Shown here in pieces: positions 10,246 through 55,144 of a DNA stretch of 64,000 nucleotides; within the stretch, counting starts at the first letter, position 1; each line of letters starts with the position of its first letter. The notes below the pieces were generated by a model. It worked only from the letters and a program-made list of their open reading frames with translations. It searched no databases and was not told where the DNA came from. A program made the translations under genes and the position numbers. Source of the DNA: Verrucomicrobiota bacterium (GTDB taxonomy: Bacteria > Verrucomicrobiota > Verrucomicrobiia > JAWXBN01 > JAWXCD01); contig JAWXCD010000003.1 of the NCBI GenBank assembly GCA_034440535.1, forward strand, positions 2,717 through 66,716. Direction: 5' to 3'.

Positions 10246-10266
10246 GAAATCCTTTTCATCCTATTT

Positions 10267-20810: not shown

Positions 20811-20816
20811 CCTGAT

Positions 20817-22976: not shown

Positions 22977-22988
22977 AATTTTGCTTTT

Positions 22989-23359
22989 TTAAGATCTTTT
23001 TTCTTTGCTGTACCTTGGACATTTTTCACGGCTGGGCGCTTTTGCCCCGGTAACGTCTACCCCAAAATTCGAACCAATGGAAATCCCTGAATAAGGAACG
23101 TGATGAATGTGGTTTCGAGCCACGATGGTTTCGCGGGCCAGGGACACGAAAATGGGAACCACCCCGTAACTGCTCCAACCCATGTTATAAATATGGTTAT
23201 CTGAAATAACCGTACCTGTCGGTAAAACTGACGGATCTGAAGCTGTCGTCGCGTTCCCCCAACAAAAACCCCGCCGCGTGTCGATACATGAATTTCCGAT
23301 TCGGTAATCAGGTTAGAAAGCAGAAACACAACGAGTCCCGCGCGAATGATGATAATCAT
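22989..23359 (-). pseudogene. possible frameshifted remnant of a small secreted beta-helix-repeat protein
   Basis: Two overlapping minus-strand ORFs in different frames. 23057-23359 begins with a signal-peptide-like MIIIIRAGLVVFLLSNLI. 22989-23183 contains beta-helix-like ARNHIHHVPYSGISIGSNFGVDVTG. They could be joined by a single frameshift. Confidence 0.2.
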
Positions 23360-23446
23360 TTAACTTGCGCGAAACCATACCGAATCATATTCCCTTTTCA
23401 AGTCCAAAGTCTCCTGGGTCGATATGAGTACTCCGCAACCTCGTTA

Positions 23447-23680
23447 CTTGGTCATATCATTAAAACGAAGTCGAAACTCCCTCGGGGTCATTCGTTTCTT
23501 TTTGGAAAAGAGGCGGTTGAAATTTGAGAGGTTTGAAAAACCACAGAAAAAGGCGATCAAAGTAATCGAGCGCGACGACTCCAGAAGCTGCTGACAGACG
23601 TGGTTTAATTTTAAATCGATGACAAAATCGGTAAAGATCGTTTTGGAATGACGTTTAAAATACGTTTCCGTCCTCCTCTT
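23447..23680 (-). pseudogene. AraC/XylS-family transcriptional regulator remnant (C-terminal HTH only, no start codon)
   Basis: The minus-strand frame between two in-frame stops translates to KRRTETYFKRHSKTIFTDFVIDLKLNHVCQQLLESSRSITLIAFFCGFSNLSNFNRLFSKKKRMTPREFRLRFNDMTK. This is a textbook AraC second-HTH signature (IA..CGFS..S.F.R.FK...G.TP.EFR). There is no Met or alternative start and no N-terminal domain. Confidence 0.55.
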
Positions 23681-24159
23681 TTACCTTTCTTAAATGGAAA
23701 CACTTTCTCACAAACAAACCGTCATTCAACCCTCGGCCTCGGAAATTCTTTCTTTTCGCAATAATGGCCACGTCAAAATCAAAAATGTTTTTTCAAAAGA
23801 CGAGATTCAGGGGTGGGAACCTAAGATAACACGTGCCTATTGGAACCTGCCAACAAGGACCAGCAAAACGATCTCAAGTCGTGGATGCCAGGGGCTACCG
23901 TCAGAAAACCCGGGCCCTGTTGCTCTTCCCCGGTTTTATATTGAAACTAAACAGCCCCTGTTACCCCGAAAAAACCTGTCACGTAACAACCGGGGGCCTT
24001 TATGTGGCCCTTCAGAATGATGGCCAACAACCCGCCATAGTCGCCTTGACCCTCCACAGCCAAACCTTCACCGGCGAAGTTCCGCAGCAGTCAACACGCG
24101 CCTGGTGGTTCGACCCGGAATCCAATAAAACCGAGACTTTGGTTTTTTAAAACCTAGAA

Positions 24160-24261
24160 CATGGGTCTCCCTACCCGTGTTCCTCCGTGTTTCCACACAC
24201 GGCTATCCACGGGGGGTAAGCCCCCCTCAAAGCACACGGGTAAGGAGACCCGTGCTCCACG
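24160..24261 (-). repeat. ~105-nt structured inverted-repeat element, copy 2
   Basis: It has the same arms as copy 1 and the same inner hairpin. The central hairpin has a different sequence but an equivalent structure (ggggggtaagcccccc). The 3' boundary lies 1 nt from the TAA stop of the giant gene. Confidence 0.6.
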
Positions 24262-27200
24262 TTAAGTCGTTTTGCGTGTGCGGGATTTCATCCAGGCGAG
24301 TGCAGGTTTGCGACCATAGAAGGCAAGAACGATTAAAGTGAGGATGATAACCATCCACTCTTCGGGTTCAGGTGTTTCATAACCCGGTGTCGCGTAAGCA
24401 TAACCGGTGTTACCAAGGCTATTATTGGCAATTCCAGTGATGTAATCGGATGTAGAATTGTTATATCCAACCCGTGTAGCGACTAGGTTGCCAGAAAGAT
24501 CCGCGCCCAAACCGGTGTTCAGTGCTGAGTACTGTAAATTGACGACTCCGCTGGAAGGATCCCAGAAGTTTTGGAAATTGGCTTGCCAACCCGCGCCACC
24601 GCCAAAGTCGAGGGCAAACTGGCTAGTCCCTCCAATCATGGTCAGATCGTAATTAGCCCCGTCATTGTTGTATGTGAATACATCGACCACAGCCCCTAAG
24701 TTATCGTAAAGAACCATATAATCCGCGTTGCTGTCCGGGTTGCCCATAAACCCATAAGCGTCCGTCCAGTTATTGAAATAACTATCAGTTAAGTAACCCG
24801 AATCGGCATTAGCGACGATCAGAGTACCGCCCTGACCGCTGACAAGATTTGTATAAGGATCGCCGGACTGAGTCCAGCTACTTCCAGTTTGTGTGGTGTA
24901 TGTCACGCTTGGGCGGAAAGGACGTCCACCTTGAACACCTCCGTTATGTTCGTCAGCACCGAAAGTAAACGAGTCAGAAGGGGCACCTACCATACCCATA
25001 ACCAAGAATTCGTTGTTTGTGCCTCCTAAGTTACCAGCGCCGGAGATACTAAAGTTGGCTGCAAGATAACCGTTCTGATCGTATGCACGAACTTTATATC
25101 CAGAAAGATCCAAGCCTCCTCCACTGCCCAAAGTCTGGGAATGGGCGAGGTTCGTTCCAAGTTTGAGTTCGAGCCATTCATGATTCTTGTCAACTGCGTT
25201 TGCTCCCGCATTGACCATAAATTCGTTGAAGTAAACAGACCCGCGATTTGCTGAGGCTGTTCCCGAACCAATCCCGGTCCCTGGCTGAACCTGTTTACGC
25301 ATATCGTTAGTGACTACCGCGCCCGTTACGTTTTCCACAAAACCTTGGTTAACCGACAATGCCATTGCAGCACTCGCAGCGCCTTGGGCGGAATAGAATC
25401 GGCCACCTTCGCGCACATCATTTAAGCCTGTACCGTTAGTGCCAGTACCGGTCGAAGTAAGGTTGTTAATTGTGTTTACGTTAGCGATTGTTCCGCCATC
25501 AGCCAAAACGTTAGCCGCCACGTTATCGGTCTTTAATCGCCCATTCAACACTGACACTGTCGAATAAAGGGCGTTCGTAAGAACCGCTGTGTAGCCTTGA
25601 CCTGAGCCGACATTTGTCACAATAAAGACCTCCGAGTGGCCCAAAGTACCCTTGAAGGTGGAAGCTGAATCCAATACAGGACTATCCGTGACTTGAACTT
25701 GAAGGTTCACAGATCCTGAAACCTGATTTGTCGTTACAGCCCAGTATGATCCGTCCGCTGCGATGACTTGTAAGTTAGCACCGCCCAAATTGGTTACGTT
25801 CCCGAACATCCCAGTTTGTTTAGTGACGTCGAAACCATTAATAAGCCGGTAGGTGTTTGTATCGGTTGTCGGTGTGGTATTGAGATAAAGTGCTCCACCG
25901 AAGACCAAGTTACCACTCGAACCCGCACTCGAAATAACGTCACGCACGTTTGTGGTAGCGCCGATGTTGAAGTAATTTGTTGAGCCCGCAAGACTCACGT
26001 AGTTAAACCCGCTCCCTACTGTCAGTGTCCCAGTATTCGTTGTTGTCCCTGCGCTGACAGTACCTGCGTTTGTTAAGTGTCCAAAGATAGTTGAACTGGT
26101 ACCGATCAGCAGACCGTTACTCTGGACGTTAAGACCATCGGAGAATCTGGCATTAACCGATTGAAGATTCAAGGTGCCCCCATTTGATAATACCACTTGG
26201 CTGCCATTTGTGAAAGTAACGCCACCAGCCCCGGTTAAAGTGAGTTGTTTATTCGATACGTTCACTGTGCCCGCGAGAACAAGCGTGCTCCCAGCAGCAT
26301 CCCAGGTCTGGGACGCGCCAACAGTCACTCTATTACTAATGAATTGGGCGACGCTGCTATTCTGGTATATCCCCACTCCATTTGTCCCCATGATAGTCAA
26401 GTTGCTGCCACCGATTGCATGGGTGCTCATTCCGGCAAGGTTACTAAAGGTCATCTGCGAAATTGAATAAGGAGTATCAATAATCGAATTTGTCTTCGTG
26501 CTATTAGCCGCAATGATAATACTTGCTGTTCCATCATTCACTGGAGCCGCGTCAAACACCCAGTTAACCCCTGTTGACCAGTTGCTGTTTCCCGTTCCAT
26601 TATTTCCATCCCAAATATAGGGCGCTTGTGAGAATACAAGATTGGTCAACCACACATCGTTTGCAATATTCAGGATCTGACCACCAAAAACGTTAGCCCC
26701 TTGGAAAACAAATCCGCTAAAGTCGTTTGAACTTCCAGCCCACGTAGTGTTATCAAATAAACGGAATCCAGCGGTGGCGAGCGGGGAATAATTAAATGTG
26801 AAATCAAGGACACCTCCGCCAAAGAAGGTTCCATTTACCGCGACGTTATCAAAGGACGCTGCACTGTTGAAATTAAAGAAGTTGGTAGAAGTCGCACCCA
26901 AAATCATGTTGCCATTGATCGTGAGCGTTCCCACATCAGCGCCCGATGAAGTGCCAAGATTCATGTTACCACGATTTGTCACATTACCCGCGATGGTTGC
27001 ACCAGCCGCGTAAATGCTCGCGTTTGTATTGACGAGCAATCCCCCGGTAAAGGTATGAGCGGCTGTCGTATCCACATAAAGGCGGGCATTTTGTGTCCCA
27101 CTACCCACCGTAAATGTGCTGCCCGTATAATTCATCCCACCGCCACCAATGATCAAGGTGCCGTCTTGGTGGCTAATCGAGTTATTCGCTTTGACCACGA

Positions 27201-30200
27201 TGTTACTGGAGTAAACAGTTGCGCCTGTATTGAGAACGAGTGTGTTACCTGTAGCCAATCCACCGGTCCCCTGACCTACTGTGATTGTACCGTAGTTTGT
27301 TAGTCTACTTCCCGTGCCACTGACAAGAAGGCTGTTGCTGTTAGCCAAAGTCGCTTCGCCGATAATGGTATTTGATACCGCAAGAATGGCTCCGCCCAAA
27401 ACCTGAGCGTTGTTGCTTGACCCTGCAAAACCCACGTACATCAAGCTTATATTTGATAACGTGGATGAAGCACCGGTGAGCACCAAGCTGTTGCTATTAG
27501 CTCCTGAAGCGCGGCCTAAGTACAAGGCCCCATCTGCTGCTGTGCTGTATAAAGTCCCACCATTGCTGACGAGCACCGAGTTCATTGTGCTATTTGAACC
27601 AATGTAAATTCCTTGAGATCCAGCCGCGCTCGCGTTGACGGCCACCACGCCGCCGTTTTCAACGATCAAACGATTCGTAGCGCCGCTTGCACCTACGACC
27701 AATGATTGCGCGTTGCTCCAAAGTGAACCCGCACCAGTCACAATAGCGTTGTTGCTATTGTTTCCTGAGCCAAGACCAATAATACCCATCCGGTTCAGGA
27801 CATCGCCACCATTGGTTACAGTCAGCAGCGTGTTGGTTCTAGAAGAGACAAAGTCGGATGTCAGATGATTTATCAAACCAGACCCAGTTACAATCAACGT
27901 TCCGTTGCTCAGGATAGTACCGCTATTGCTGTTTGTGCCGAGTACCGTCATCGACCCTGCTCCGACCTTCGTTAATGCGAAAGCACCTGAAACCGTTGAG
28001 TTACTTAATGTGAGGTTTGCTCCGCTATCCGCTCCGAAAGCGGATGCACTTCCTAAAGTGACAGCACCCGTCACCGTATTGTTCAGTCCTGAAACAGCAC
28101 GTATAGCACCCGTGTTGTTTGACCCAGCCCCGTTAACAGTGAAGCTTCCAGCAGCAACATTTAAAGTTCCATTTGATAAACCGAACGACCCGCCGGTATT
28201 AACCACATAACCGTTGGCTCCTTGGAGGTTAAGAATATTACTTCCGATGTAAGTTGCCCCGCCCAGATTCAAGTTACCACCAGTGGCATACCAAGACTGA
28301 GTGGATGACGCGACCGTCATATCATTATTGATCGTCTGAGCCACCGAGGCATTTTGCCAGATACCCGTACTAATGATCCCGCTATTGGAAGCAAACCCAG
28401 TCAAAGTAATGTTACTACCGGACAAGGTGTGACTACTCATTCCAGCCAAGTTACTATATGCAAGCATGGACACGCTCCAGTTGGTGTTTACAAATGGAGT
28501 AGTCTTACTGCTATTATCCGAGAAAAGAATACGCGCTTGACCCGAATTAATTGGAGCCCTGTCATCTACCCAATTGAGGGAGTTACTCCAATTATTGTTA
28601 CCCACACCGTTGTTACCATCCCATACGGACCATGATGACACCATGTTTGTGATCACGACGTTACCGCCAATATTAGTGATAGTGCCGCCGACAATGTAAT
28701 TGCCGTACCAGTTAATTGCGCTCCAGTTATTAGACGCCCCCGTCCACTGGGCGTTGTTATTCACGATAACAAACCAGTCATTTGGTGTCATATCGTAATC
28801 AAACCGAAGATTAAGAACACCCGCCGCAACGTAAGTTCCTGCAACGTAATTGCTATCGAAGAACCCTGGAGCTTGACCCAAGAAATTGAACGACTGAGTC
28901 GAACTCGCAGTGTTTATATAACTGTTGTTGAAAGTGAGTCTCCCAACTGAGCTTGCATTGGTGGTACTGTCCATACCCGGCGTCAATAACCCGCGGTTGG
29001 TGACCGAGCCATTAAATGTTGCGTTCGCACCATAAAGTGTTGCGCCGTTATTAATCACAAGGTTACTTGCAAACGTGTGCGTCCCACCAATGAGCCCAAG
29101 TGTTGCACTCTGACTTCCGTCACCCACCGTGTACAGACCCGGGTTGTAAGTCGTGCCGCCATTGCTGATGACCAGCGTGCCGCCGTAGTGCTGAACCGAG
29201 TTATTGAGAATGGCAGCCGAAAGTTGATTGAGAGCGACGCTACCAGCATTGTCGATTCTTAAGACATTGCCCGTACCACCTGAAGTTCCCAGATTGAGGA
29301 TGCCCGAGGCTGAGAATGTCCCACCGTTAACAACGATGGAATTGTTGGTACCGGACACACCCACGTAATTATTAACCCCGGAGGCAGTAACCGTTGCTCC
29401 GTTGGATACGATAAGGCTGTTATAATTCGCCCAAGCGCCAGCACCCACGAAAATTTCGGCGGATCGCAGTATGGACCCCGCACCCTCGACGGTAATAGTA
29501 TTACTCTCGCCCGCCCAGCCAGCTACCGTTTGAAATAAGGGGTTATTAGTAAAATTAGCGATGGCGCCCGAGTTGATCAGGACCGAGTTACCGTTGGCAC
29601 GAAAAACGCCACCGTCGCCCACAACCAATTGCGAACCATTGATGATGGCATTACTGCTGAGAACAAGACTGTTATTCAATGCACGTATGTTTCCTCCGAC
29701 CTTGATGACACTGCCCAGATCCCAGCGAGTGCCGGACCCTGTTACAAGTGCCATGTTGCCTGTTCCCCCCGAGTATGGGCCGTCTTCGCTTCCTCCAATA
29801 AAAGCGCCTCCTCCATTGGAAAGGTAGCTCCCGCCGGAGACTTCGAGGAGGTTACTCCCAGCGCCACTGAAACCAACATAGATATGACTGTTCAACAAGA
29901 CCGAGGCCCCATTGCTGACCAGAGCTTTGTTGCTGCTCCCCGTCCATCCAATGACTAGGGAGGAAGCTTTCACGACAGAACCGGCACCGTCGACGATCAT
30001 CTTATTGCTCGATGCAGCATTATCACCCACAAACAGGTCGCCGCCACTATGCATCGCGTACAGACCCCCATTGGAAACAATCAATGTGTTGTTCCCTCCG
30101 CTATGACCTATCCAACTTTTACCAAATATGGAATTTGAAATTATGCTGCCAGCTCCCGTGACTATGGCGAGGTTGTTGGATGCGCTAGCGACGGCTCCCA

Positions 30201-39200: not shown

Positions 39201-42200
39201 CTGATCCACTCACAACAAGCGTTCCATTACTTACCGCTGTTCCAATTCCACTGGCAGGATTGTAGGTGTTCGATGAAAGCATGACGATCGTACCAGCTCC
39301 CACTTTTGTCATTTGGAAATTACCGGCCACCGCATTTGAAAGATATAAGACAGCCCCGGAATCCGCACCCAAGCCCGAGGCACTCGCCATGGTCACCACG
39401 CCTGATACTGATCCTGATCCACCTAATAATCTAATGGCGCCTGCGTTATTGGTTCCATACCCATTAATTTGAAAGGTTGTTCCCGCTAAAATTTTTCCAC
39501 CATTGGTCAGGTATATGGCACCGTTATTATTGAGCGCTACGGTATTGAGTCCCGTTATAGTTAAGGTTCTGGTTCTTGCATCAACTACGCCACCAAAATT
39601 GATATTTCCTTGGCTCGCATTAAAAATATTATCGGCCGCTAGGATAAGATTGTTATTGATCGTCTGAGCGGCTGAATTGCTCTGCATGATCCCTACTCCG
39701 GAATCACCTTGAAGTGTGATGGTTTGACCGCCCAATGTATAAGACCCCATTGATCCAAGGTTACTAAATGTGAGCGACTTTACATTCCATGCCACGTCCA
39801 CATTGGGGGAAGGACGCGTATTATTAGCGGCGAAAATGACCCCTGCATTTCCATCATTTGCTGGAGTGGTGTCGCCTACCCAGTTCGCGCTTGCGCTCCA
39901 GTCGTTATTGACACCGGATCCCCCGTCCCAAACGGTAGTCACTAAACTTGAGAAATTGGAAATGACGTAATTCTGCCCGATAAACCCTGACCATCCTGCC
40001 GTCACCTGTCCTAGCCAATTGACTTGTGAGAATGATCCTAAGCCGGTGGTATTCTGGAAAATGGTAAAAGAGTCATTGGCAGCAGGAACGTATGAGAAAT
40101 CCAAATTAAGCACACCCGCAGCTAAAAAAGTTCCGCCAACGTAGTTACTATCGAAAAGGGATGAGCTTAAAAATTTAAACACTGAAGTTGAGGAAGCTTG
40201 GTTAATCAAATTGTTGTTAAATGTCATGGTTCCAATACCAGCTCCGGCCGAACCTCCCGATGACAGAACACCGCGATTTGTCACGTGCCCATTAATCGTC
40301 GCCGTCCCGTAAAGGGTGGCATTGGTATTGATGATCAAATTTCCGGCCGAGAAAGTATGGGTCCCGCCCCCGAGGCCCAGGGCCGCTGTCTGCGAACCAT
40401 CGCCTATGGTATAGACCGTCGTGGGATTGTAAGTGATATTGTATCCGTTCCGGGTTTCCAGCGTTCCGCCGGAATGATTGATCCGCGAAGCGGCATTCAC
40501 TGTCATGGTGTAAGTATTATCCAGAATGACCAAGCCATTGCTGTTAATGTTGAGTTGGTTCTGACTTCCACCGGCCCCCACATTAACAGCCCCTTTATGA
40601 TACAGGACTGAACCCGAGTCTTGGACTGTGACTATGTTACTATAAGCGGACCCACTTTCACCGATGTGTAAAGCTGAACCCGATACATTCGTATATTTAC
40701 CGCCACTCGCTAAGATAAATTGATTACTATAACTTGACCCTTGATAGCCTAAAGTCAGTTTGGATCCGGTTTGTATAGTGGCGTTATTACTAACGACTAA
40801 ACGATTGTTATAGGAAGGATTCCCAAACCCCACGTATAACTCGCCAGGAGTATAGAGGTAAGAATTAGCACCTCCGACGACGAGTTCATTATTAAAACTT
40901 CCCGCGCCCTCACCAATCGTTATCCCAGAAGCGTCACTAATGAGTCGACCACCATCCATCACTAAAATCTTGTTGTTCGTGCTGGCACCTTGAAAACCCG
41001 CGCGGATTTGACCATTGGCACGCATGAACCCTGCGTTACTGACAATTAAAAGATTGTTATGTGAGGGATTGCCATATCCAACACTGATGTCTCCAGCTCC
41101 GTACCATACAGAACCGGTCCCGCTGACCATGATAATATTGCTCAAACTATTCGCGCCTTCACCCATGTTGACGCTCCCTTGAAAGTTTGTAATTTTACCG
41201 CCGGCTAAAACAAAGGCCCGATTGTTGGTCGAAGCACCCTGGTAACCTACCCGCATAGTGCCCGTACGCAGTGTTCCCCCATTACTGACGACAAGACTAT
41301 TGTTGTAGGATGGGCTGCCGTACCCGACATTGACCTCGCTATTATTCCAGTACAGGGCCCCGTTATCTACTTGAACGTAGTTACTCGCCGAATTCGCCGT
41401 TTCCCCAATTTGAAGGGAAGCACTATTACTGACAAGTGACCCGGACCCGGAAATGATTAAAGAATTTGTCCCGCCTGTGCTGCCACCTTGAGCGATATGG
41501 ATTGTAGAAGCGTTAATAAATTGACCCCCATTACTCACCACCATCCGCTGACCTCCAGCGCCACCAATTCCCCAATAAAATTCCAAATTACTGTTATTCC
41601 ACAACGAATTGGCTCCAGATATTTCCATGTAATTGTTACTTGATGCTGCATGCTCACCCAAACGTGTATCACCTCCAAGAACCGAAACTCGTCCACCATT
41701 GCTAACAATAACGCGGTTGCTGGCTCCACCACTTTGACCAATTCGAAAATAAGATTCAGTCGAATAGGTTGATCCTGCTCCGTCGACAACCAGCATGCTA
41801 TTACTGGCAGCAATATTGAAACCTATATCGGTCTGTGATCCCCCAGGATAAATAGTTACAAAGTCCGCCCCATTGCTAATGGCTAACACCCCGCGGCTGT
41901 TATGACCCACGCTTAAATGTGCACGATTGGTTACGAGAGTGGTGTTTCCAGTCACATTCAGCACGCCCGACCCTGTTCCTCCAGAAACATTTCCTAAATA
42001 AGTGCGATCATTTGAATCAATCAAGTTTGAGTTACCACCACTGATCGTCCATGTCATGTCCCGGTTAAGGGTGTTGCCCACATAAAACTCATAACCATTC
42101 ATTGTAAAATGACTCTTGGTTTCAAAAGTCCCGTAGTCCAGGAAGAGGCGAGAACTGCCACCGTTTGTCACAAACACTCGGTCAGCCAATATATTTCCAT

Positions 42201-45200
42201 TACTAATATAAAAACTTGAAGACTGCGGCACAAAATCGGCATTGCCAGCCGCATTCGTAAAGGCCACCGTGTTGCCGTTCGTGATAAAAAGGTTGCCCCC
42301 ATTGATCAGCCAGCCCCCACCCACCGCGCCGCTCCCGCGCAAGGCCACGTTTCCTGCGGATTGGGTCACTTTACCGGTTCCAGAAAGACCACCCCACACA
42401 CTCAATCCACCCGCGCCACTCACGTTCCACGTCTGGTCAGACACGAGATTTAAATTGTTGCTTATCGTCTGCACCGTATCGTCAGCCTGGGTAATTCCAC
42501 CGGCGCGAATCGTGATATTACTGCCCCACAAGGTAAAGGCACTCGCGTTGTTACTAAATACAATCGCCCGCACATCCCAATTGGTGTCAGTAAACGGTGT
42601 TAATCGAGTGCTCCCTTGGAATGTGACTTTTGCCCGACCGTCATTAATGGGAGGAATGTCACTGATCCAGTTTGCATTGGATGACCAATAATCACTGGAC
42701 CCATGTCCGCCGTCCCACACGTAATTCGCAAGTGAAACGTTGCTCACAATAACATTATTGCCCGAATAAAGGACGCTTCCTGATAAAGCTGCTCCAAGCC
42801 AATTAACGTTAGCAAAGGTTCCAGCTACCGTTGAGGATCCCGCAAAAACCGTAAAGGCGTCGATGAGGTTTGGATCAAAATCAAATTGAAGGTTGAGTGT
42901 TCCATCCACTCCCAATGAACCGGCTGTCGCACTTGTGATACGGTTTGAATCAAAGTTTCCTGCCCCTGTTCCGTTAAAACTAAATAGCGACGTCGCATTA
43001 TTTGCTAGGAAAAGAGAACTCATGACCATCGCGCCCACGCCTGCGCCGCCATTTGTTCCAATGGAGAGGTAACTTCCGCGATTTGTAACAGCTCCAATAA
43101 TGGTTCCGTTTCCGTAAAGCGTCGCATTCGTATTCACCAATAATCCACCACTAAAAGTCTGCGCGTTGGCTCCGTTGATCCCAATCGCGGAAGCTTGGGA
43201 GCCATCACCTACAGTATATGCCGGAGTAATCGTCCCAGCTACCCCGCCGTTGATAACGAGTGTTCCGCCGTTGTGCGTCACGCTATTGTTTGCACTTACA
43301 TTCAGCCCATTAGCATACACCGTCGCGTTGGAATTGATCGTCAGTTGATTGCCGCCATTCACATTAATATTTAAAGCGCCTGCATTGCTCCAAGTCGAAC
43401 CCGCTCCGGTCACAATCACTTTGTTCGTCGAACCCGTGCCCGCCCCGATGGCAGAAGCGGTGCTTGAAAATGAATTAACGTTAGCACCATTACTAATAAC
43501 CATCTGGTTACTCACAGTGGAATTGCCCAGCGTAAACGCGCCGACCATGTTCCAGCGTGAACCTGCACCAGTGATCAGGGCTATATTATTGGAACTCGTC
43601 GTTTGACCAATGATGGTCGTTCCCGTGTTAGTCAGAGAAGCCCCGCTCGATACCGTCAACCGGTTATTCTGCGCACTCGCATTGTTACCCATCAGAAAGT
43701 TTCCGCCAACGTACCAGGCGGAATTGTTGCCATCCAAAACAACGGAACTGTTACTTCCGCCAGCGGCATTACCGATCGTTCCAGCCAGACTCATGACTTG
43801 GGCTCCGTTGGAAACGAGGAGTTGAGATCCCCCGCCCGCTTCGCCCACTGTCAGCGTGCCCCGGTTTGTCCAATAGGCGGTTGAACCACTTAACGAAACA
43901 AGACTGTTGCTCCCGCTCACAGCAGAACCGATGCGCGCATTGTTGGCCGCGGCCCGTCCTCCGTTTGTGACAAACATTCGCCCTAGACCATCCTCACCCA
44001 CGTAGAGGTCGTTAACATTGCTAAACGAACCAAACTCACCAACGACGTTAACAATCCCTGTTGAACCCGCTACTGACCCGATGTGAGTGGCGGCTCCGGG
44101 GGTAATGGTATGAATTCCACCATTAACCACCCAGATCGCTTGCTGGGCGGCGGTCGCGCCTATCTCCAAAGTAGTAGATCCAGAACCATAATTAAGCACG
44201 GCTGTGCGGGTTGTTAAGAGTCCATAGTTTAAATAAACAGAAGAATTGGCGTCCGTGCGTGGGGCGTTTAAGTAATCAATAACACTCGTTCCGCCCGACT
44301 GCACAAACATACCGCCCCCTTGTCCCACCACACCCACGTCAAATGTCGCTGTGCCTGATGTATTAGTGACCAGTAAAATCCCACCTGCGTTGGTGACGTT
44401 GTTGTTGCCTTCCCCATTTTCACCCAAACGCATGTAAGGCGTGTAAACAAGGCCGCCATTGGTGACGATCAATCGGTTATTTGTGGTATCCCAACCGATT
44501 CGAATGCCTACGCCAGATTGATTAATCGAATTATTGATCAGTTTAGACCCATCACCTGTGACAAGAATTGTATTGTCTCCAGAACCTCCTGCGGGGCTGA
44601 TTCCCAAATAAATATTGTTTCTATTGGTCACCACACCACCGTTAGAAACAATCAGGCTCCCACGCTGAGCTGAGCCCCCTTCACCGATCCGAATTTCCGT
44701 GCCCACATTAACTTGTGCTCCACTCCCCGAAACAAGGAGCGAGTTACTGTTTCCGGAATTATTCCCAGAAATATAAAGCGTACCCCCAACGTTCACCACA
44801 CCACCATCCATCACGAGGGCTTGATTACTAAATCCCCCATTACCCACATGAAGTTGGGCGCCGATTGTAGCCAACGCGTTGTTACTCACTATGAACCGGT
44901 TCAGGCCATTCCCGGCCGCGTTTTCTTGCGCGATCACGAAACTTGAATTGAGACCTGCATCCCAAGAACTGCCAGTGCCCGTAATAATAAACTGGTTATT
45001 ACTACTGCTGCGACCAAGGTAGTGCGTCTGCCCGGCAGCAAGCGAAGTTACGACGGCACCGTTGCTGACAATTAAAATATTTGTGGAGGACCCGCTCTGT
45101 CCGATATTAAGCGCAGAGGTATGTGAGAACCGGGTACCACTGTCCGCGATCAGCATGTAGTTACTGTTGCCGTTTTCACCAACATTCAGGACGCCACCCG

Positions 45201-47058
45201 CATACATAGTGGCTCCATTGGTCAGAATAAAAGTATTCCATGAACTACCTTGGCCCACTCGGAAATTCGAAGTGTTAGTGATGTTTACACCACTCCCCTG
45301 GGCCAGAACGAAGTTATTGCTGGAACCGATGGAGAAACCCACATTAAATTCGCCAACAATGTTCAGGCTCGATCCATTCGTGACTACCATTCGATTGTTT
45401 GCCCCATTCGCACCGAAAATAAAGGTACCATTAGCCCTCCAACTCGCTCCATCCAAAATCAATACGTTGTTGCTCCCAGTCACTTGGTCCCCAACCCAAA
45501 CCCCTGCGCTAGCAATAGTAGCCGAGTTGGACACAGTCATGACATTCCTGCCGCCATTATAGCCCAGATAGAAGGTACTCCCATTGCTCCACATCGAACC
45601 GGCGCCCGCGACCAATACGGAGTTACTATTGGCCCCTGCCACGGCCCAGCCCACGCGAGCCACTCCAAGATTGATTAACTTTCCACCGTTGGTCACCACC
45701 AGTGTCTGACTCCCTGCGTTATCTCCTAAGTAAAAATCACTCCCGCCTCTAAATAACGATCCTGCATCCTTAATAACCAGAGTATTATTTGAGGCAGTTG
45801 ATTGTTGTCCTAAATAAATTGTACCCGCATTCGAAATCTGACCCCCGCTGGCCACGAGCGCGTAATTGAATGCACCCGCCTGCCCTATACGAATTTCACT
45901 CCCGCTATTGAGAAAACCATTATTCGTTACGAATAATTGATTGTAATTGGCACCCACACTATTACCGAGATAAACGAAGTAGCCTGCTCCGGCATTGTAC
46001 ATGGAAGCTCCACTGCCGCTGATCATAAGCAGGTTACTGGATGACCCCGCCGCCTGCCCAACGTACACATGGCCATTGGTCATCTTCCCGCCATCCATGA
46101 TGTAAAGTGAGTTGTTACTGCTGTTGTTGCCGACGTAAATCCAGTCGCTTAGTCCGGCATCAAACACACCATTGTTGGAAACAATGACTGTATTCCCATT
46201 TGCCGCCGTGGCCTCACCAATCCGGAGACCATGAGTTCCCGACCATTTAGCCCCGGTTCCGGAAACAATAAATGTGTTGTTACTTGCTCCGCTGGCTTGA
46301 CCAACTTGGATGTAGGCACCACTCATTGTGCCAGTGGACGTCCCCATCAACCTCATGGTTGCATTCGTGCCATCCAGGTAGAGCTGATTGCCCGCGTTCA
46401 GTGTAAAATTTGCATTTGTAAAAACCAAATTCGCTCCGTTACGCACATACGTCGTAGCCAACCCGCTCGCATTGCCGCGCATTGTAAATGTTCCAGGTCC
46501 ACCGACGGTCCACGTGTTCCCACCTCCTGTCAATGTACCTAGAAAGGTCATTCCACCACCCGCATCAAACCAAGTGTTTGCCCCACCAAAGGTGAGATTA
46601 TTATTAAATGTCTGGAGATTGGTTGTGCTTAAATTGGTAAGGCCGGTGTTAATGGTCAAAGCGTTGTTGGTAAAAGTAAACGTTCCGGCACTGTTACTAA
46701 AAGTCAGCGTGCTCACGGTTTTCCCTGCTTCAAGATTGATGGTTGTTCGTGTCGTGCCATCAATTCCAACCGCAGATCCCGAAGTTGGAACCACATCAGT
46801 ACTCCAGTTGGTCGCGGTGCCCCATTGATTATCTGCTCCACCCCCGTCCCAAGTCTGCGCTAAAGTTGGATTAATAAATGCAGAAACAATAACGAAACAA
46901 ATTAACGATCTTATTGTTACAGCTAAGTGACGCTCAGCAAAAGCATTGGACAAAAGTACACCTGACGTGCGCACGGCACCCCGTAAACAAGACTGAAAGT
47001 GTTGATGATTAAGAGACAATACGTTGTGTTCCAATTCTAATTGTCTGAAGAGAAACAA
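24262..47058 (-). CDS. giant (~7,560-7,598 aa) PEP-CTERM-anchored cell-surface beta-helical repeat protein (adhesin-like), with autotransporter-associated beta-strand-type repeats and a lamin-tail-like domain
   Basis: A single uninterrupted 22.8-kb ORF. A TTG at 47058 follows a stop directly; a likelier start is GTG ~46974, preceded by GGGGTG, giving a long signal peptide ...SLICFVIVSAFINPTLAQ. There are seven head modules (W[DNS]GG...NWS...NW...P.N.G.A) at aa 69, 1446, 2375, 3247, 4773, 6143 and 6814. There are dozens of G/N/S/T-rich ~20-25-aa coils with [LIV]VSNGG motifs, and canonical TKVGAGT..L.G.NTY.G.T.ISNGTL repeats. Six tail modules read H.GGTL...VGDGSQTAALG..GGTHTF...INTNATLYG...VTNRG. 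The C-terminus is ...ETPEPEEWMVIILTLIVLAFYGRKPALAWMKSRTRKTT. Confidence 0.85.
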   Translation of the reverse strand: MFLFRQLELEHNVLSLNHQHFQSCLRGAVRTSGVLLSNAFAERHLAVTIRSLICFVIVSAFINPTLAQTWDGGGADNQWGTATNWSTDVVPTSGSAVGIDGTTRTTINLEAGKTVSTLTFSNSAGTFTFTNNALTINTGLTNLSTTNLQTFNNNLTFGGANTWFDAGGGMTFLGTLTGGGNTWTVGGPGTFTMRGNASGLATTYVRNGANLVFTNANFTLNAGNQLYLDGTNATMRLMGTSTGTMSGAYIQVGQASGASNNTFIVSGTGAKWSGTHGLRIGEATAANGNTVIVSNNGVFDAGLSDWIYVGNNSSNNSLYIMDGGKMTNGHVYVGQAAGSSSNLLMISGSGASMYNAGAGYFVYLGNSVGANYNQLFVTNNGFLNSGSEIRIGQAGAFNYALVASGGQISNAGTIYLGQQSTASNNTLVIKDAGSLFRGGSDFYLGDNAGSQTLVVTNGGKLINLGVARVGWAVAGANSNSVLVAGAGSMWSNGSTFYLGYNGGRNVMTVSNSATIASAGVWVGDQVTGSNNVLILDGASWRANGTFIFGANGANNRMVVTNGSSLNIVGEFNVGFSIGSSNNFVLAQGSGVNITNTSNFRVGQGSSWNTFILTNGATMYAGGVLNVGENGNSNYMLIADSGTRFSHTSALNIGQSGSSTNILIVSNGAVVTSLAAGQTHYLGRSSSNNQFIITGTGSSWDAGLNSSFVIAQENAAGNGLNRFIVSNNALATIGAQLHVGNGGFSNQALVMDGGVVNVGGTLYISGNNSGNSNSLLVSGSGAQVNVGTEIRIGEGGSAQRGSLIVSNGGVVTNRNNIYLGISPAGGSGDNTILVTGDGSKLINNSINQSGVGIRIGWDTTNNRLIVTNGGLVYTPYMRLGENGEGNNNVTNAGGILLVTNTSGTATFDVGVVGQGGGMFVQSGGTSVIDYLNAPRTDANSSVYLNYGLLTTRTAVLNYGSGSTTLEIGATAAQQAIWVVNGGIHTITPGAATHIGSVAGSTGIVNVVGEFGSFSNVNDLYVGEDGLGRMFVTNGGRAAANNARIGSAVSGSNSLVSLSGSTAYWTNRGTLTVGEAGGGSQLLVSNGAQVMSLAGTIGNAAGGSNSSVVLDGNNSAWYVGGNFLMGNNASAQNNRLTVSSGASLTNTGTTIIGQTTSSNNIALITGAGSRWNMVGAFTLGNSTVSNQMVISNGANVNSFSSTASAIGAGTGSTNKVIVTGAGSTWSNAGALNINVNGGNQLTINSNATVYANGLNVSANNSVTHNGGTLVINGGVAGTITPAYTVGDGSQASAIGINGANAQTFSGGLLVNTNATLYGNGTIIGAVTNRGSYLSIGTNGGAGVGAMVMSSLFLANNATSLFSFNGTGAGNFDSNRITSATAGSLGVDGTLNLQFDFDPNLIDAFTVFAGSSTVAGTFANVNWLGAALSGSVLYSGNNVIVSNVSLANYVWDGGHGSSDYWSSNANWISDIPPINDGRAKVTFQGSTRLTPFTDTNWDVRAIVFSNNASAFTLWGSNITIRAGGITQADDTVQTISNNLNLVSDQTWNVSGAGGLSVWGGLSGTGKVTQSAGNVALRGSGAVGGGWLINGGNLFITNGNTVAFTNAAGNADFVPQSSSFYISNGNILADRVFVTNGGSSRLFLDYGTFETKSHFTMNGYEFYVGNTLNRDMTWTISGGNSNLIDSNDRTYLGNVSGGTGSGVLNVTGNTTLVTNRAHLSVGHNSRGVLAISNGADFVTIYPGGSQTDIGFNIAASNSMLVVDGAGSTYSTESYFRIGQSGGASNRVIVSNGGRVSVLGGDTRLGEHAASSNNYMEISGANSLWNNSNLEFYWGIGGAGGQRMVVSNGGQFINASTIHIAQGGSTGGTNSLIISGSGSLVSNSASLQIGETANSASNYVQVDNGALYWNNSEVNVGYGSPSYNNSLVVSNGGTLRTGTMRVGYQGASTNNRAFVLAGGKITNFQGSVNMGEGANSLSNIIMVSGTGSVWYGAGDISVGYGNPSHNNLLIVSNAGFMRANGQIRAGFQGASTNNKILVMDGGRLISDASGITIGEGAGSFNNELVVGGANSYLYTPGELYVGFGNPSYNNRLVVSNNATIQTGSKLTLGYQGSSYSNQFILASGGKYTNVSGSALHIGESGSAYSNIVTVQDSGSVLYHKGAVNVGAGGSQNQLNINSNGLVILDNTYTMTVNAASRINHSGGTLETRNGYNITYNPTTVYTIGDGSQTAALGLGGGTHTFSAGNLIINTNATLYGTATINGHVTNRGVLSSGGSAGAGIGTMTFNNNLINQASSTSVFKFLSSSLFDSNYVGGTFLAAGVLNLDFSYVPAANDSFTIFQNTTGLGSFSQVNWLGQVTAGWSGFIGQNYVISNFSSLVTTVWDGGSGVNNDWSASANWVGDTTPANDGNAGVIFAANNTRPSPNVDVAWNVKSLTFSNLGSMGSYTLGGQTITLQGDSGVGIMQSNSAAQTINNNLILAADNIFNASQGNINFGGVVDARTRTLTITGLNTVALNNNGAIYLTNGGKILAGTTFQINGYGTNNAGAIRLLGGSGSVSGVVTMASASGLGADSGAVLYLSNAVAGNFQMTKVGAGTIVMLSSNTYNPASGIGTAVSNGTLVVSGSGRINHSGANVVISGTGSSLVVSNSARVTGNQLSVLNGNAVLLADGTLVFAGGGTLAGSGISDTGVLRNLSGTSVISGGTLTMSGGAIALGSDAGTLIVSNVVAGSSALTKVGAGTVILDGVNTYGPGAGTGTSISNGTLLVRGGGRINHTGANIVFDTTNGTLSVTNGGRVTVAAVSVGTLANAQSNTLQVAGSSSEMNVSSLAIGNGNAANFNQTIVSNNGVLFVTNSTTLGNAASGTNNALYVMDGGKLTNSTGSLTIGATSASVSNIAVISGAGALARVGGSVVVGNAANAINNSLFVSNSGLLSVVGDINVGNGSSANNLFIGSGGTVTSAGAVYIGGNGVGNTGIVQGSGSILRSATLIVGNSAGSTDNRIHLTNGGMISVSGNSTIGNNATANNNLMVVSDSNTLFTNAGTLTIGGAGSGNRMVVSNGAVVRSSTIAVNSGNTIQHDGGTIQIGSAGMTYNAGSLYTAGNGVQTAALVVTNGGTHTFGNNLLINTNATLNASGATFSGIVTNRGTLSNNGSGVGTASFNNGLFFGGSSTSVLNFASAGSFDSNFVSGVFTAGGILNLDFGYGAALTDSFIVFQNTTGSGSFSTINWSGYVDGGFAGYVGQNFVVSNLSLAASVWSGYSGSDNNWSTATNWLNNLAPVNNGAARIVIASTNLRTSPNVDVPWSIATLTFSNLASMGSYTMNGSALTINGYNGTGIVQNSSSAQFFNNNVVVGQNQNWYANSGHLVFNGQLRVPFDLNLYGANNYYFTNGSSALVMDGGKIGPGSSTIYIMGSGAGNSGVVKNINGTYPAALEGNVAMLGNSSLGSDVGVLYIQGGISGNFILSKVGPGTVGLQGANTYAPASGFGTVISNGTLAVTGSLARINHAAADIALVGTGATFGVYDGAKVTNNALYLGYNNVANSNTTVIVNDNGSVLHVGGAFNLGDTANGNSLAISNGGRVNAYRNGSYLSMGAAASSSNNTLTIHGSSSLLTMTNSGLYVGDVSSFNTMNILAGGTYSNTSAAEGLRIGNVAGSRSNTVTVSGAGSTLRQSAFGINVGYDGSFNQMIISNGGYVTNVGASYIGRIAGSSNNSVIVTGTNSTWVNNGALDVGSAGAQSSLTVTNGGYVSNSGVLTVGNASSSSNNTVTINSGGIVRVGGAMTFGNAAGSSNNTMTLSDTGSLLAISGSSLSFASGISNRIVVSNGAGLVIGSLAVGGDLNFNGNGGNTFIMTGAGTYGLFGNGVWAQSSTNYFELSAGAKMTNLNASRMGFTGNSNYFLVTGAGTVWTNAGGNTMAYGAVTGNTFIVSNSAQYLSPNDMSLAGVVGGGGQVSNKLLILDGGQMIVGASALGDEGSLNTVVVAGTGSILDQVSVRMGYRAGANDNRFFVTNGGTWRINNGSTLGASGSRNILTVSDPGSAFIITNGFIVQWESGGGVGSGNGMVATNGGLIKVGGDLNIGYQGTTGAAFLTNAGGLLVVTNWTGVANNFYVGWSGKGDFYNVGGTSIVDNLWAANTTVGDSRVFLNSGILTTKTSTINYGNNGSLEIGRTSGQTMNWYMNGGLNTFSGSGDVVFGPASSGGKANVMVEGSATTWTNYRNFYFRTDNNLLVVSNNATVGGGVMYIGDNVVANSNTVLVVAGGRLQTTDARISYQGSNNTFVVAGANSYWTNSGGINLAYFDQAFNSLWVTNGGRVDNTTGMFLGGGGGTATSNKLIISSGGYMRASDTRIGYGGRGNIMVVEGAGSIYSNANGNMSIAYGAGTNNYIFVTNNGVLTGVNAFAIGSGNGTEYSNMLTIASGGKMYTADLRLSYGGFYNTTVIDGAGSYFTNTGNGGLNYGFGDYNTLTISNGGTFGNGGIFNVGDQGKSNLMVVNGSGSSATIGNALNIGNSGGGNGNGLVISNGGVVNVMGGNTMVGNNGQNNWVLLQNSGSILSNVNTLVIGNGTTGNWLSVSSEAKATANAITVAANNSITQSGGTVEARAGAFTYNSTIQYVAGDGSQTAVLGAGGNTTHTFNGGILVNTNTTFYGQGTISGTTPIVTNRGTLTMGTNLGGSGYGTFTFNSNLVNTASSTNLFSFGGTTAGNFDSNRVNGTLFAGGALQLFFDNDNFLSSDTWTIYTAGAANVNGTFFTNLWLGGAENGTVLYNQSGGNNVIISNVTASSYVWNGAGANANWSNSANWSRGVAPLNDGRARVVFASNNVSTAPFVNTNWDVRGITFSNAPLTVQSYTILGSNITVRQAGVFNATASNQTILNNMTLAANQSWTTTNGGNLLLGGTIDSGSIASNYQWTLNAGTGKQIRFTNTVSGGAAVSNIGAGNLIFDGQNANTIGGLHLAAGVVQITNNGTLNITNGGNSVFNVFGVAFAHSNNVNIRADHLFVTNGNQYMMSNGTLTTLGDSRITVDNGGGLLIGRVAGQNFTWNVLGGSNYVGTAGGGVTLGAITNSSGTLLVSGAGTFFTNAGVLNVGLYGTNSRLLVSNGGTLNVSGDIRMGENASANGNTLMITGGNSVVNVGAALRMGFTGASQSNVLHVLDGGTLSTVSGIIIDYASNSTILVSGNGTSVSNTSGDINIGYRASALNNSLVVSSNAIINTASSLYIGYDGASNSLSVTSGGRITNTAGVVGVNSRGNSATITGAGSGWKLYNSDFYIGQNAGASNNLLVVSNGANMSLFGGINGTFYVGSGDQSNRMIVAGGAYVTNQTHVVIGNNASSSNNSVLVTGSGTRWDSGNELLIGQVAGAINNQLVVSNGAVMTFAGNYNVVGNGGNNSSVIVSGSGSKLIMNNSIDRGFQIGNAGNSHYVILTNGGLVVANDLRIGSSGAAGSGGSLTNAGGMLVVTSLNYAANNRLYIGAAGSPGSFVSMGGTSVVDNIDASVASANSTIMLNYGVLTNKLSTIAYGANGSLEIGRTAGQTMTMYVNGGLNTWYVGDTRVGAATGARGSVILDGVATVLTNKNYFYLGYNSTGNVMQVINGARMTNGNYLFIGTEAGASDNYLLVSNGGSILTPTMLMGAVASASNNLAIVTGAGSIISNSIFGKSWIGHSGGNNTLIVSNGGLYAMHSGGDLFVGDNAASSNKMIVDGAGSVVKASSLVIGWTGSSNKALVSNGASVLLNSHIYVGFSGAGSNLLEVSGGSYLSNGGGAFIGGSEDGPYSGGTGNMALVTGSGTRWDLGSVIKVGGNIRALNNSLVLSSNAIINGSQLVVGDGGVFRANGNSVLINSGAIANFTNNPLFQTVAGWAGESNTITVEGAGSILRSAEIFVGAGAWANYNSLIVSNGATVTASGVNNYVGVSGTNNSIVVNGGTFSASGILNLGTSGGTGNVLRIDNAGSVALNQLSAAILNNSVQHYGGTLVISNGGTTYNPGLYTVGDGSQSATLGLIGGTHTFASNLVINNGATLYGANATFNGSVTNRGLLTPGMDSTTNASSVGRLTFNNSYINTASSTQSFNFLGQAPGFFDSNYVAGTYVAAGVLNLRFDYDMTPNDWFVIVNNNAQWTGASNNWSAINWYGNYIVGGTITNIGGNVVITNMVSSWSVWDGNNGVGNNNWSNSLNWVDDRAPINSGQARILFSDNSSKTTPFVNTNWSVSMLAYSNLAGMSSHTLSGSNITLTGFASNSGIISTGIWQNASVAQTINNDMTVASSTQSWYATGGNLNLGGATYIGSNILNLQGANGYVVNTGGSFGLSNGTLNVAAGSFTVNGAGSNNTGAIRAVSGLNNTVTGAVTLGSASAFGADSGANLTLSNSTVSGAFALTKVGAGSMTVLGTNSNSGTILSNGTLIVTGSGLINHLTSDFVSSRTNTLLTVTNGGDVLNRMGIIGLGSGNNSNNAIVTGAGSLWSNAQSLVVGASGATNRLIVENGGVVAVNASAAGSQGIYIGSNSTMNSVLVSNGGTLYSTAADGALYLGRASGANSNSLVLTGASSTLSNISLMYVGFAGSSNNAQVLGGAILAVSNTIIGEATLANSNSLLVSGTGSRLTNYGTITVGQGTGGLATGNTLVLNTGATVYSSNIVVKANNSISHQDGTLIIGGGGMNYTGSTFTVGSGTQNARLYVDTTAAHTFTGGLLVNTNASIYAAGATIAGNVTNRGNMNLGTSSGADVGTLTINGNMILGATSTNFFNFNSAASFDNVAVNGTFFGGGVLDFTFNYSPLATAGFRLFDNTTWAGSSNDFSGFVFQGANVFGGQILNIANDVWLTNLVFSQAPYIWDGNNGTGNSNWSTGVNWVFDAAPVNDGTASIIIAANSTKTNSIIDTPYSISQMTFSNLAGMSTHAIGGSNLTIMGTNGVGIYQNSSVAQFISNRVTVGASQTWDAAGSTLVLAGTVNVSNKQLTLTGAGGVTFTNGSQVVLSNGGTLNLQSVNARFSDGLNVQSNGLLIGTSSTIFGHLTNAGTVSAGTTTNTGTLTVGSGFNYVSLAGSTNYFNIGATTNVRDVISSAGSSGNLVFGGALYLNTTPTTDTNTYRLINGFDVTKQTGMFGNVTNLGGANLQVIAADGSYWAVTTNQVSGSVNLQVQVTDSPVLDSASTFKGTLGHSEVFIVTNVGSGQGYTAVLTNALYSTVSVLNGRLKTDNVAANVLADGGTIANVNTINNLTSTGTGTNGTGLNDVREGGRFYSAQGAASAAMALSVNQGFVENVTGAVVTNDMRKQVQPGTGIGSGTASANRGSVYFNEFMVNAGANAVDKNHEWLELKLGTNLAHSQTLGSGGGLDLSGYKVRAYDQNGYLAANFSISGAGNLGGTNNEFLVMGMVGAPSDSFTFGADEHNGGVQGGRPFRPSVTYTTQTGSSWTQSGDPYTNLVSGQGGTLIVANADSGYLTDSYFNNWTDAYGFMGNPDSNADYMVLYDNLGAVVDVFTYNNDGANYDLTMIGGTSQFALDFGGGAGWQANFQNFWDPSSGVVNLQYSALNTGLGADLSGNLVATRVGYNNSTSDYITGIANNSLGNTGYAYATPGYETPEPEEWMVIILTLIVLAFYGRKPALAWMKSRTRKTT
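24265..24387 (-). other. PEP-CTERM sorting domain (exosortase recognition tail) of the giant protein
   Basis: PEP tripeptide, then a ~13-aa hydrophobic helix (WMVIILTLIVLAF), then a basic cluster (GRKPALAWMKSRTRK) at the extreme C-terminus. Confidence 0.8.
24919..25247 (-). other. lamin-tail-domain (LTD)-like segment within the giant protein
   Basis: The pattern SVYFNEFMVNAG...KNHEWLELKLGTN...LSGYKV matches the LTD signature (INE...N..EWIEL.N....L.G). Confidence 0.5.
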
Positions 47059-50746: not shown

Positions 50747-50751
50747 GGAAT

Positions 50752-51261: not shown

Positions 51262-51262
51262 A

Positions 51263-53701: not shown

Positions 53702-53702
53702 C

Positions 53703-55142: not shown

Positions 55143-55144
55143 AC

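Follow-up and report, generated by a model that had tools for sequence, protein, structure and literature searches.

A 22.8-kb gene of a Verrucomicrobiota bacterium encodes a candidate seven-unit beta-solenoid protein with a PEP-CTERM-like tail

The stretch of DNA analysed here (the window; 64,000 nucleotides of contig JAWXCD010000003.1, from a Verrucomicrobiota bacterium) carries a giant gene on its reverse strand, at 24262..47058. The open reading frame (ORF) is 22.8 kb long and runs through 7,598 codons with a sole, terminal stop at 24262-24264, which bears out the statement in an earlier note on this DNA, made from the sequence alone, that the frame is intact. The amino-acid composition of the protein is extremely skewed: it contains G at 16%, N at 12%, S at 11% and T at 10%, but only two cysteines. 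It appears to be a chain of seven units, each comparable to a complete protein that stands alone elsewhere, with a signal peptide in front and a PEP-CTERM-like tail at the end.

A unit opens with a head of ~125 amino acids (aa; W-x-G-G...NW...P.N.G.A), continues in some cases with a turn that resembles the PATR repeat, goes on with a variable number of coils, and closes with a tail of ~210 aa. The head motif starts at aa 69, 1446, 2375, 3247, 4773, 6143 and 6814, the positions given in the earlier note, and the unit lengths reported there (1377, 929, 872, 1526, 1370 and 671 aa) agree with the spacing of these heads. Hidden Markov models (HMMs) of head and tail, built from the window's own copies, mapped seven heads, six full tails and one weak seventh tail match (aa 6886-7115). 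The six full tails, 207-221 aa each, immediately precede heads 2-7, closing the first six units as had been described, and a MAFFT alignment of the six junctions returned the described consensus (H.GGTL...GDGSQ.A...THTF...NTNATLYG...VTNRG...FDSN...NW). The self-dot-plot proposed in the earlier note, made here by chunked self-BLAST, gave six conserved blocks of tail plus head at about aa 1200-1560, 2110-2600, 3000-3500, 4500-4900, 5900-6400 and 6550-6970, with 40-58% protein identity to each other; the coil regions are less alike, and the last ~600 aa are unique in this comparison. Neither heads nor tails correspond to any Pfam or NCBIfam model, in the giant protein or in the relatives scanned.

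The count of six super-repeats did not hold. Because the weak HMM match and tail-like residues place a degenerate tail after head 7, at aa ~6944-7115, where the sequence visibly matches the tail consensus in the alignment, we read the protein as having seven units, the last of which would consist of a head and a degenerate tail without coils.

The coils belong to a known repeat family. The NCBIfam model TIGR04393 (T5SS/PEP-CTERM-associated repeat, T5SS being the type V secretion system; curated cutoff 23 bits) matches aa 1-4000 with 98.8 bits in 14 stretches and aa 3601-7598 with 77 bits in 8 stretches, which makes the giant protein a member by the repeat model. When the units are scored singly, five of the seven (1, 2, 4, 5 and 6) pass the cutoff, and unit 3 falls just under it. 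Hydrophobic residues in the coil regions show autocorrelation at 26-28 aa and again at 53-55 aa, with a peak of 0.13, where 200 shuffles reached 0.067 at most; because of these two spacings, one coil probably has 27 residues and each TIGR04393 repeat probably comprises two coils. The PATR repeat is scarcer than was first thought. Canonical copies had been claimed for each unit, and the motif (TKVGAGT...NTY...GT.ISNGTL) does exist, but in four copies only, at aa 2584, 2728, 3457 and 6363, all in units 3, 4 and 6, where the first copy lies ~210-220 aa from the head start. Pfam PF12951 (PATR; gathering score 27 bits) reaches 18.6 bits in the first half of the protein and has no match in the second, and TIGR02601 (PATR) matches nowhere. 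The HMMER check that the earlier note had proposed thus succeeded for the coils, through TIGR04393, and returned none of the TIGR02601, TIGR02595 and PF00932 models.

On the reverse strand, head 1 (aa 68-187, 46498..46857), recognised by the head HMM, belongs to a 'first-head' subtype that groups with the N-terminal heads of the relatives P0001, P0004 and P0005. It is followed by the unit 1 coils (aa 188-1231, 43366..46497; TIGR04393 93.6 bits in 8 stretches, 26/53-aa periodicity) and by tail 1 (aa 1232-1445, 42724..43365), which like all full tails was assigned from the junction alignment and the tail HMM. Heads 2-7 were assigned from the head motif and the head HMM. Unit 2 has head 2 (aa 1446-1569, 42352..42723), coils with the strongest 28-aa periodicity, 0.41 (aa 1570-2160, 40579..42351; 39.2 bits), and tail 2 (aa 2161-2373, 39940..40578). 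Unit 3 has head 3 (aa 2375-2503, 39550..39936), a middle with PATR-like motifs at 39205-39309 and 38773-38877 (aa 2504-3039, 37942..39549; 21.7 bits) and tail 3 (aa 3040-3246, 37321..37941). Unit 4 has head 4 (aa 3247-3374, 36937..37320), a middle that holds a PATR-like motif at 36586-36690 and the best Pfam PATR stretch (aa 3375-4552, 33403..36936; 64.1 bits), and tail 4 (aa 4553-4773, 32740..33402). Unit 5 has head 5 (aa 4774-4903, 32350..32739), coils of 27-aa periodicity (aa 4904-5923, 29290..32349; 53.4 bits) and tail 5 (aa 5924-6143, 28630..29289). Unit 6 has head 6 (aa 6144-6280, 28219..28629), a middle with a PATR-like motif at 27868-27972 (aa 6281-6598, 27265..28218; 30.8 bits) and tail 6 (aa 6599-6811, 26626..27264). 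Head 7 (aa 6814-6943, 26230..26619) and the degenerate tail 7 (25714..26229) make up unit 7, which TIGR04393 does not match.

At the DNA level the units are diverged, as had been stated: the longest exact direct repeat in the 22.8-kb gene is 19 nt, and blastn of the gene against itself gave at best 118 nt at 69% and 45 nt at 82%. The suggestion that the array is old draws support from this divergence, but has to be qualified by an internal block of foreign codon usage. This block (codons ~3570-5630, 30169..36348 on the reverse strand, 6.2 kb) has a third-position GC content (GC3) of 0.64, against 0.48 for the rest of the ORF and 0.44-0.51 for the housekeeping neighbours. A two-changepoint model gave a log-likelihood ratio of 75. 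GC1 and GC2 do not change, C-ending codons (GCC, ACC, GTC, GGC) are enriched in the block, and the anomaly in GC and GC skew is also visible in the composition of the window. The block spans the start of the unit 4 coils and junction 4|5 and reaches into the unit 5 coils. The simplest reading is that it was imported by recombination from a relative with other codon usage, and such an import would have divided one ancestral unit into two. No donor was found for the block, with P0001 only 35% identical there.

When 1.84 billion cluster representatives were screened exhaustively with a profile of the six junctions, 2,615 proteins matched at E<=1e-3, 17 of them at E<=1e-30, and heads and tails were mapped on the best 150 of the 2,615. 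Heads occur in 146 of these 150, with the first head no more than 70 aa from the N-terminus in 128 of the 146; a single head is present in 116 and several heads in 30. The multi-head relatives include P0018 (6,558 aa, 8 heads; the Joint Genome Institute, JGI, calls it 'autotransporter-associated beta strand protein'), P0014 (4,567 aa, 6 heads) and P0007 (4,321 aa, 5 heads). Full tails are less common than heads among the relatives. The head mostly stands directly after the signal peptide and ahead of the first PATR repeat, and most of the best 150 match the profile through the head. By a simple pattern, the C-termini of the same 150 comprise 50 that are PEP-CTERM-like, 7 with F-Y-R-x...P and 4 ending in F/W. 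P0057 is a true autotransporter, with PF03797 at 144.7 bits and six PATR repeats in a Pfam scan of nine proteins. P0011, P0019, P0022, P0024, P0038, P0111 and P0119 close with a conserved ...(R/A)FYR(V/A)xxP in place of a PEP-CTERM or a barrel, and this ending may be another C-terminal domain or sorting signal.

The small members of the family suggest how the giant protein was put together. P0094 (962 aa) and P0136 (887 aa) each consist of a single unit, with a tail that directly precedes the PEP-CTERM. Because the alignment of either protein with unit 3 of the giant (aa 2377-3248; 25-26% identity) runs from end to end, one super-repeat appears to equal a complete stand-alone protein less its signal peptide and anchor, and the giant protein would be a covalent concatemer of such proteins. 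Its closest relatives are only 35-40% identical to it. P0001 (2,201 aa, three units, PEP-CTERM) is collinear with giant residues 42-525, 4217-5376 and 6387-6963. P0002 (MDZ4817070.1, 2,673 aa, 'autotransporter-associated beta strand repeat-containing protein') has an accession close to those of the window's neighbour proteins MDZ4814693 and MDZ4814702, which are labelled 'MAG: Verrucomicrobiota bacterium'; label and accession suggest that P0002 is a paralogue in the same metagenome-assembled genome (MAG). A genome scan with one junction gave three weak, distant loci only. In a rough neighbour-joining tree of heads and tails, drawn without support values, one group unites the N-terminal head of the giant with those of P0001, P0004 and P0005, and the six internal heads of the giant interleave with the internal heads of P0001-P0005, as do the tails. 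A design of several units, in which first and internal heads differ, seems to predate this gene.

The relatives also bear on where the protein begins. The first possible start of the ORF is the TTG at 47058, and a hydrophobic, signal-like segment closes ...FINPTLAQ|TWDGGG at aa 68/69. Because the signal peptides of P0001 and P0004, 25-26 aa long, stop right before the same TW motif, the true start is probably further in, at the TTG at 46953 (aa 36), which has AGGTG ~7 nt on its 5' side, or at the GTG at 46974 (aa 29). Either of these would leave a signal peptide of 33-40 aa closing TLAQ|TWDGGG, like those of the relatives. The probable Sec-type signal peptide (aa 36-68, 46855..46953 on the reverse strand) was recognised by eye only, from a basic n-region, the hydrophobic SLICFVIVSAFI and then TLAQ|TW, placed as in the relatives.

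After the degenerate tail comes an orphan region (aa 7116-7562, 24373..25713 on the reverse strand), which has no detectable relatives. The last 640 and the last 280 aa gave no Pfam match at E<=10, and word-indexed protein searches at E<=1 found nothing for the C-terminal 640 aa, the C-terminal 259 aa or one junction (311 aa). For the C-terminal region there was likewise nothing in PDB sequences or JGI metagenome contigs; the sole hint was the PEP-CTERM family NF038129, with 20.8 bits, far below its cutoff of 65. The lamin-tail domain (LTD, PF00932), which the earlier note had proposed checking for, is absent from the Pfam matches of the last 640 and 280 aa, and the likeness near aa 7340-7420 is visual only. 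The protein ends in 36 residues (24265..24372 on the reverse strand) that read TPEPEEWMVIILTLIVLAFYGRKPALAWMKSRTRKTT. They contain a PEP (P7563-E-P), a 15-residue hydrophobic stretch (W7568-G7582) modelled as a helix by AlphaFold2 (AF2), and a basic cluster (R7583, K7584, K7591, R7593, R7595, K7596), and so have all three parts of the tripartite PEP-CTERM definition: PEP, membrane helix and basic residues (PMC3237569). The TIGR04393 class is expected to end in a barrel or a PEP-CTERM; the giant has no barrel and carries the PEP, helix and basic motif, which neither generic HMM matches.

An AF2 model of junction 2|3, which covers tail 2 and head 3 and was made from a six-row alignment, is all beta with a pLDDT (predicted local distance difference test) of 71. 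Its one long stretch of low confidence, residues 223-249, is the linker from tail to head together with the W-x-G-G motif. Foldseek against the PDB gave the autotransporter Ssp (8e7f) as the best match, at a non-significant E of 0.39, and the weak list below it consists mostly of right-handed beta-helices (Ag43, pectate lyases, tailspikes, HxuA, EspP). This list would back a beta-helix fold only qualitatively, and the beta-solenoid geometry of the coils is putative.

Other assemblies support the gene. Contig CAYLKY010000004.1 (GCA_964384395.1) is 99.93% identical, over the 21,470 bp compared, to window positions 39064-60533 without gaps, and its gene call keeps the giant ORF open for 5,376 residues to the contig end, at window position ~30929. 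A Logan contig (SRR6448214) is 100% identical to 10817-31358 and covers the last 2,364 codons, although it may share reads with the MAG. If the CAYLKY010000004.1 gene call is accepted, these two contigs tile the whole gene with an overlap of 430 nt. A third contig, ENA ERZ505514 NODE_16693 (3.4x), is 99.94% identical to 19707-29654. Between GCA_964384395.1 and window 39064-60533 there are 15 differences, 7 of them in the 8 kb of the giant gene compared (39064-47058), and 5 of these 7 lie in the mature protein. Four of the 5 change an amino acid (S1962N, F2022Y, N2404T, V2407L), numbers too small to interpret.

These features can be combined in one picture. We consider it reasonably likely that the giant is a Sec-exported, seven-unit beta-solenoid fibre, probably exosortase-sorted and possibly adhesive. 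The Sec signal peptide would export a chain with a mature length of ~7,500 residues and seven passenger-like units. Heads and tails might serve as end caps or as nuclei for folding, by analogy with the passengers of autotransporters, such that each unit would fold into its own rod with short linkers between the rods. The C-terminal helix would keep the protein anchored in the inner membrane; cleavage of the PEP site by an exosortase-type enzyme would then release it to the cell surface or into the exopolysaccharide layer. Assuming a rise of ~0.48 nm per coil, ~7,000 residues at 27 per coil would give a segmented fibre of roughly 100-130 nm. Its likely role would be adhesion or matrix building, as is commonly supposed for proteins of this sort, and no enzymatic or ligand-binding domain was found that would narrow it. 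Unit number would have changed through recombination within the coil regions. Gene integrity, the module map, the family matches, the coil period, the occurrence of heads and tails among relatives and the compositional mosaic are observed directly. Beta-solenoid geometry, surface location, exosortase processing and adhesive function are all deduced here from features of the protein, and the adhesin or S-layer role proposed in the earlier note is, in the same way, a conjecture.

Several observations weigh against this picture. The fold assignment is weak, as the junction model found no PDB structure at E<0.1, and searches of PDB sequences with the junction profile and with the unit 1 coils came back empty. 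A single-sequence AF2 model of the C-terminal 498 aa was unusable (pLDDT 33.7). Codons ~2666-5233 (31359-39063) have the GCA_964384395.1 gene call as their only outside support, and the ERZ505514 contig has a 1-nt insertion near 28975 and leaves the window at 29654. At the C-terminus, neither TIGR02595 nor PF07589 matches the isolated tail at E<=10, the PEP is followed by an acidic EEW, 14 extra residues come after the first basic pair, and no exosortase gene is present in the 64-kb window among the ORFs of at least 150 aa that were scanned.

The points concerning the C-terminus are those on which a real giant beta-solenoid could differ from a canonical exosortase substrate, its tail being either a plain membrane anchor or the signal for a different or variant sorting enzyme. 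In favour of this is the behaviour of the generic models: in the same search the tails of P0001, P0002, P0006, P0136 and P0021 passed TIGR02595, and in the Pfam scan of nine proteins P0029 passed PF07589. The earlier note's PEP-CTERM anchor is thus only weakly supported, by the PEP, helix and basic motif and not by the models that detect the tails of its relatives. The best match of the giant's tail is to the last ~38 positions of TIGR04477, a protein sorted by the specialised exosortase XrtN (20 bits, E 1.6e-4), and the EEW and the long basic extension fit a variant signal equally. Yet a protein with a signal peptide and with PEP, helix and basic cluster at its extreme C-terminus fits the tripartite definition, and PEP-CTERM HMMs are known to be non-exhaustive (PMC3237569). 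Because the same models miss P0009 and P0100, in which the PEP is obvious, their silence is not decisive, and we take the giant's tail to be PEP-CTERM-like but divergent. Most complete relatives close with clear PEP-CTERM tails, and the apparent same-MAG paralogue P0002 has a canonical one that passes TIGR02595 with 22.8 bits against a cutoff of 16. We therefore hold a non-canonical anchor to be unlikely, at perhaps the level of an alternative worth keeping in mind.

The concatemer logic also allows a more specific and rather improbable proposal, that the giant is the covalent form of a tail-to-head polymer. On the cell surface, stand-alone PEP-CTERM proteins made of head, coils and tail would stack tail to head, seven of them would be fused here, and the subtypes of first and internal heads would preserve the interface between tail and head. 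Unit number would then vary between strains through recombination in the coils, a suggestion made because the high-GC3 block carries one junction and three assemblies break at its edge. If the proposal is true, the length of the fibre would be a surface trait that can evolve and that differs from strain to strain.

A single covalent fibre is also preferred to a polyprotein, in which cleavage at every tail/head junction would yield seven proteins, each the size of one unit, that work singly or join up again head to tail. Each unit is a stand-alone protein elsewhere, the tail-head linker (residues 223-249) is the only low-confidence part of the junction model, and internal heads are a subtype apart from first heads, all of which would suit cleavage. 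On the other hand, neither a protease domain nor a cleavage motif was found at the junctions, nor was an internal PEP or a hydrophobic segment, cutting would strip units 1-6 of their sole anchor, and no precedent was found in the literature searched. A polyprotein is accordingly very doubtful.

The least probable of these alternatives is that assembly created the ORF by a chimeric join or by collapsing several paralogues, for instance near 29.6-31.4 kb, and we give it hardly any credence. Other assemblies stop or switch at 29654, 30929 and 31358, within 1.7 kb of one another and all within ~1.2 kb of the 3' edge of the high-GC3 block, with a rough chance probability of ~0.02 and no long DNA repeat near the breaks; strain-level heterogeneity or coincidence may account for the clustering. 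Beyond 29654 the ERZ505514 contig, which also has the 1-nt insertion, continues into unrelated DNA with an AdoMet decarboxylase gene, the switch lying inside a short repeat (family D5), and a paralogue, P0002, apparently exists in the same MAG. Against a join stand the frame, open across 7,598 codons where a chance stop-free in-frame join is unlikely, and the Logan contig, which is 100% identical over 24262-31358 and overlaps by 430 nt with the GCA_964384395.1 gene call that reaches 30929. The coverage of the ERZ505514 contig is only 3.4x, and its switch is probably a low-coverage artefact, a structural variant being the less likely option. The longest exact repeat is 19 nt, and therefore nothing is there to mislead an assembler; misassembly by repeat collapse is ruled out by this lack of DNA repeats. 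The gene is probably real and single, and an assembly artefact is unlikely.

Three other classes of secreted protein were tried and rejected for the giant. It is not an autotransporter, since it has no C-terminal beta-barrel (PF03797 is silent on it, with the P0057 control at 144.7 bits). It is not a TpsA protein, as Pfam reported no family other than PATR and thus no two-partner-secretion (TPS) domain, and there is no TpsB neighbour. It also lacks the domains of RTX or type 1 secretion adhesins.

The giant protein is closest to the TIGR04393 proteins of Verrucomicrobiota and Planctomycetota, with which it shares the coil repeat, the head and, among the relatives, the choice of C-terminal anchor. 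The NCBI Prokaryotic Genome Annotation Pipeline (PGAP) names these proteins 'autotransporter-associated beta strand repeat-containing protein', and P0002 and P0018 are so named. The giant differs from them in having seven units, against one in most (116 of 146), a divergent PEP-CTERM-like tail and an orphan region of ~450 aa. No experimental study of the group was found in the literature searched, only incidental mentions of the product name. A Gly/Asn-rich right-handed beta-helix is likely common to the giant and the passengers of type Va autotransporters (pertactin, Ag43, Ssp), but the giant has a PEP-CTERM-like helix anchor in place of the PF03797 barrel and is far longer and multi-unit. 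Two-partner-secretion fibres (FHA/TpsA, CdiA) are long extracellular beta-helical rods of short coils and offer an analogy, from which the giant departs in that no TPS-domain Pfam family was reported, no TpsB neighbour exists and the anchor is another one. With PEP-CTERM/exosortase substrates (Haft et al.; PMC3237569) the giant has in common the N-terminal signal peptide and the tripartite C-terminus, while its tail is unseen by generic HMMs and a cognate exosortase was not located in the window. Giant genes are reported to be frequent in the PVC (Planctomycetota-Verrucomicrobiota-Chlamydiota) phyla, including Verrucomicrobiota (West-Roberts et al. 2023, bioRxiv 10.1101/2023.11.21.568195; PMC12057145). 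They too are very large, repeat-rich and probably surface-located (bioRxiv 10.1101/2023.11.21.568195). Those described are mostly from Omnitrophota and have many transmembrane helices and SecA-like, dockerin and carbohydrate-active domains (bioRxiv 10.1101/2023.11.21.568195; PMC12057145), whereas the giant here contains just one family of repeats and lacks enzymatic domains.

Neither an Omp85/TpsB-type transporter nor type 1 secretion genes occur in the window, and promoter and terminator scans at both ends of the gene were not above chance. Directly upstream lies a contiguous cluster on the reverse strand (47675-59130) for alternative complex III (multihaem cytochrome, Fe-S subunit, NrfD-like protein, ActD, cytochrome c) and a cbb3-type oxidase (FixS, CcoN, FixO and a c-type cytochrome). 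Downstream, 22977-24261 is 1.3 kb without a long ORF. Within it, at ~23444-23680 on the reverse strand, is a truncated AraC-family helix-turn-helix sequence (HTH_18, 60.4 bits) that keeps only the last ~78 aa, with a stop before it, and is probably what remains of a pseudogene. Other assemblies have a gene call for the 64-aa ORF at 22989-23183, which has no Pfam match. Further downstream are a 719-aa protein that is hydrophobic at its N-terminus and has a weak pectate-lyase-like match, a beta-CASP RNase, GltB/GltD, and a cluster of sugar-modification and glycosyltransferase genes. On the forward strand of the latter, 8001-10300 is a low-GC glycosyltransferase island (GC 0.33-0.41, GC3 down to 0.30, against up to GC 0.55 elsewhere in the cluster) that looks like another compositionally foreign segment.

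Much of this was already known: the repeat family, its T5SS or PEP-CTERM anchors, the PGAP name, giant PVC genes, exosortase sorting and multi-head relatives. Undescribed in the literature searched are the head and tail modules, the concatemer logic in which a unit equals a stand-alone protein, and the codon-usage mosaic. The giant gene leaves current understanding unchanged, its class being known and its function inferred. It shows, in a clear case assembled in full, how very large bacterial surface proteins can arise by stringing together whole copies of a stand-alone protein, and its high-GC3 block gives a means of testing how units are added to such genes. Its tail is a case in which generic PEP-CTERM models miss a plausible sorting signal. 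The profile of their junctions finds at least 2,600 clusters, and defining the head and tail modules would improve the annotation of many surface proteins of Verrucomicrobiota and Planctomycetota.

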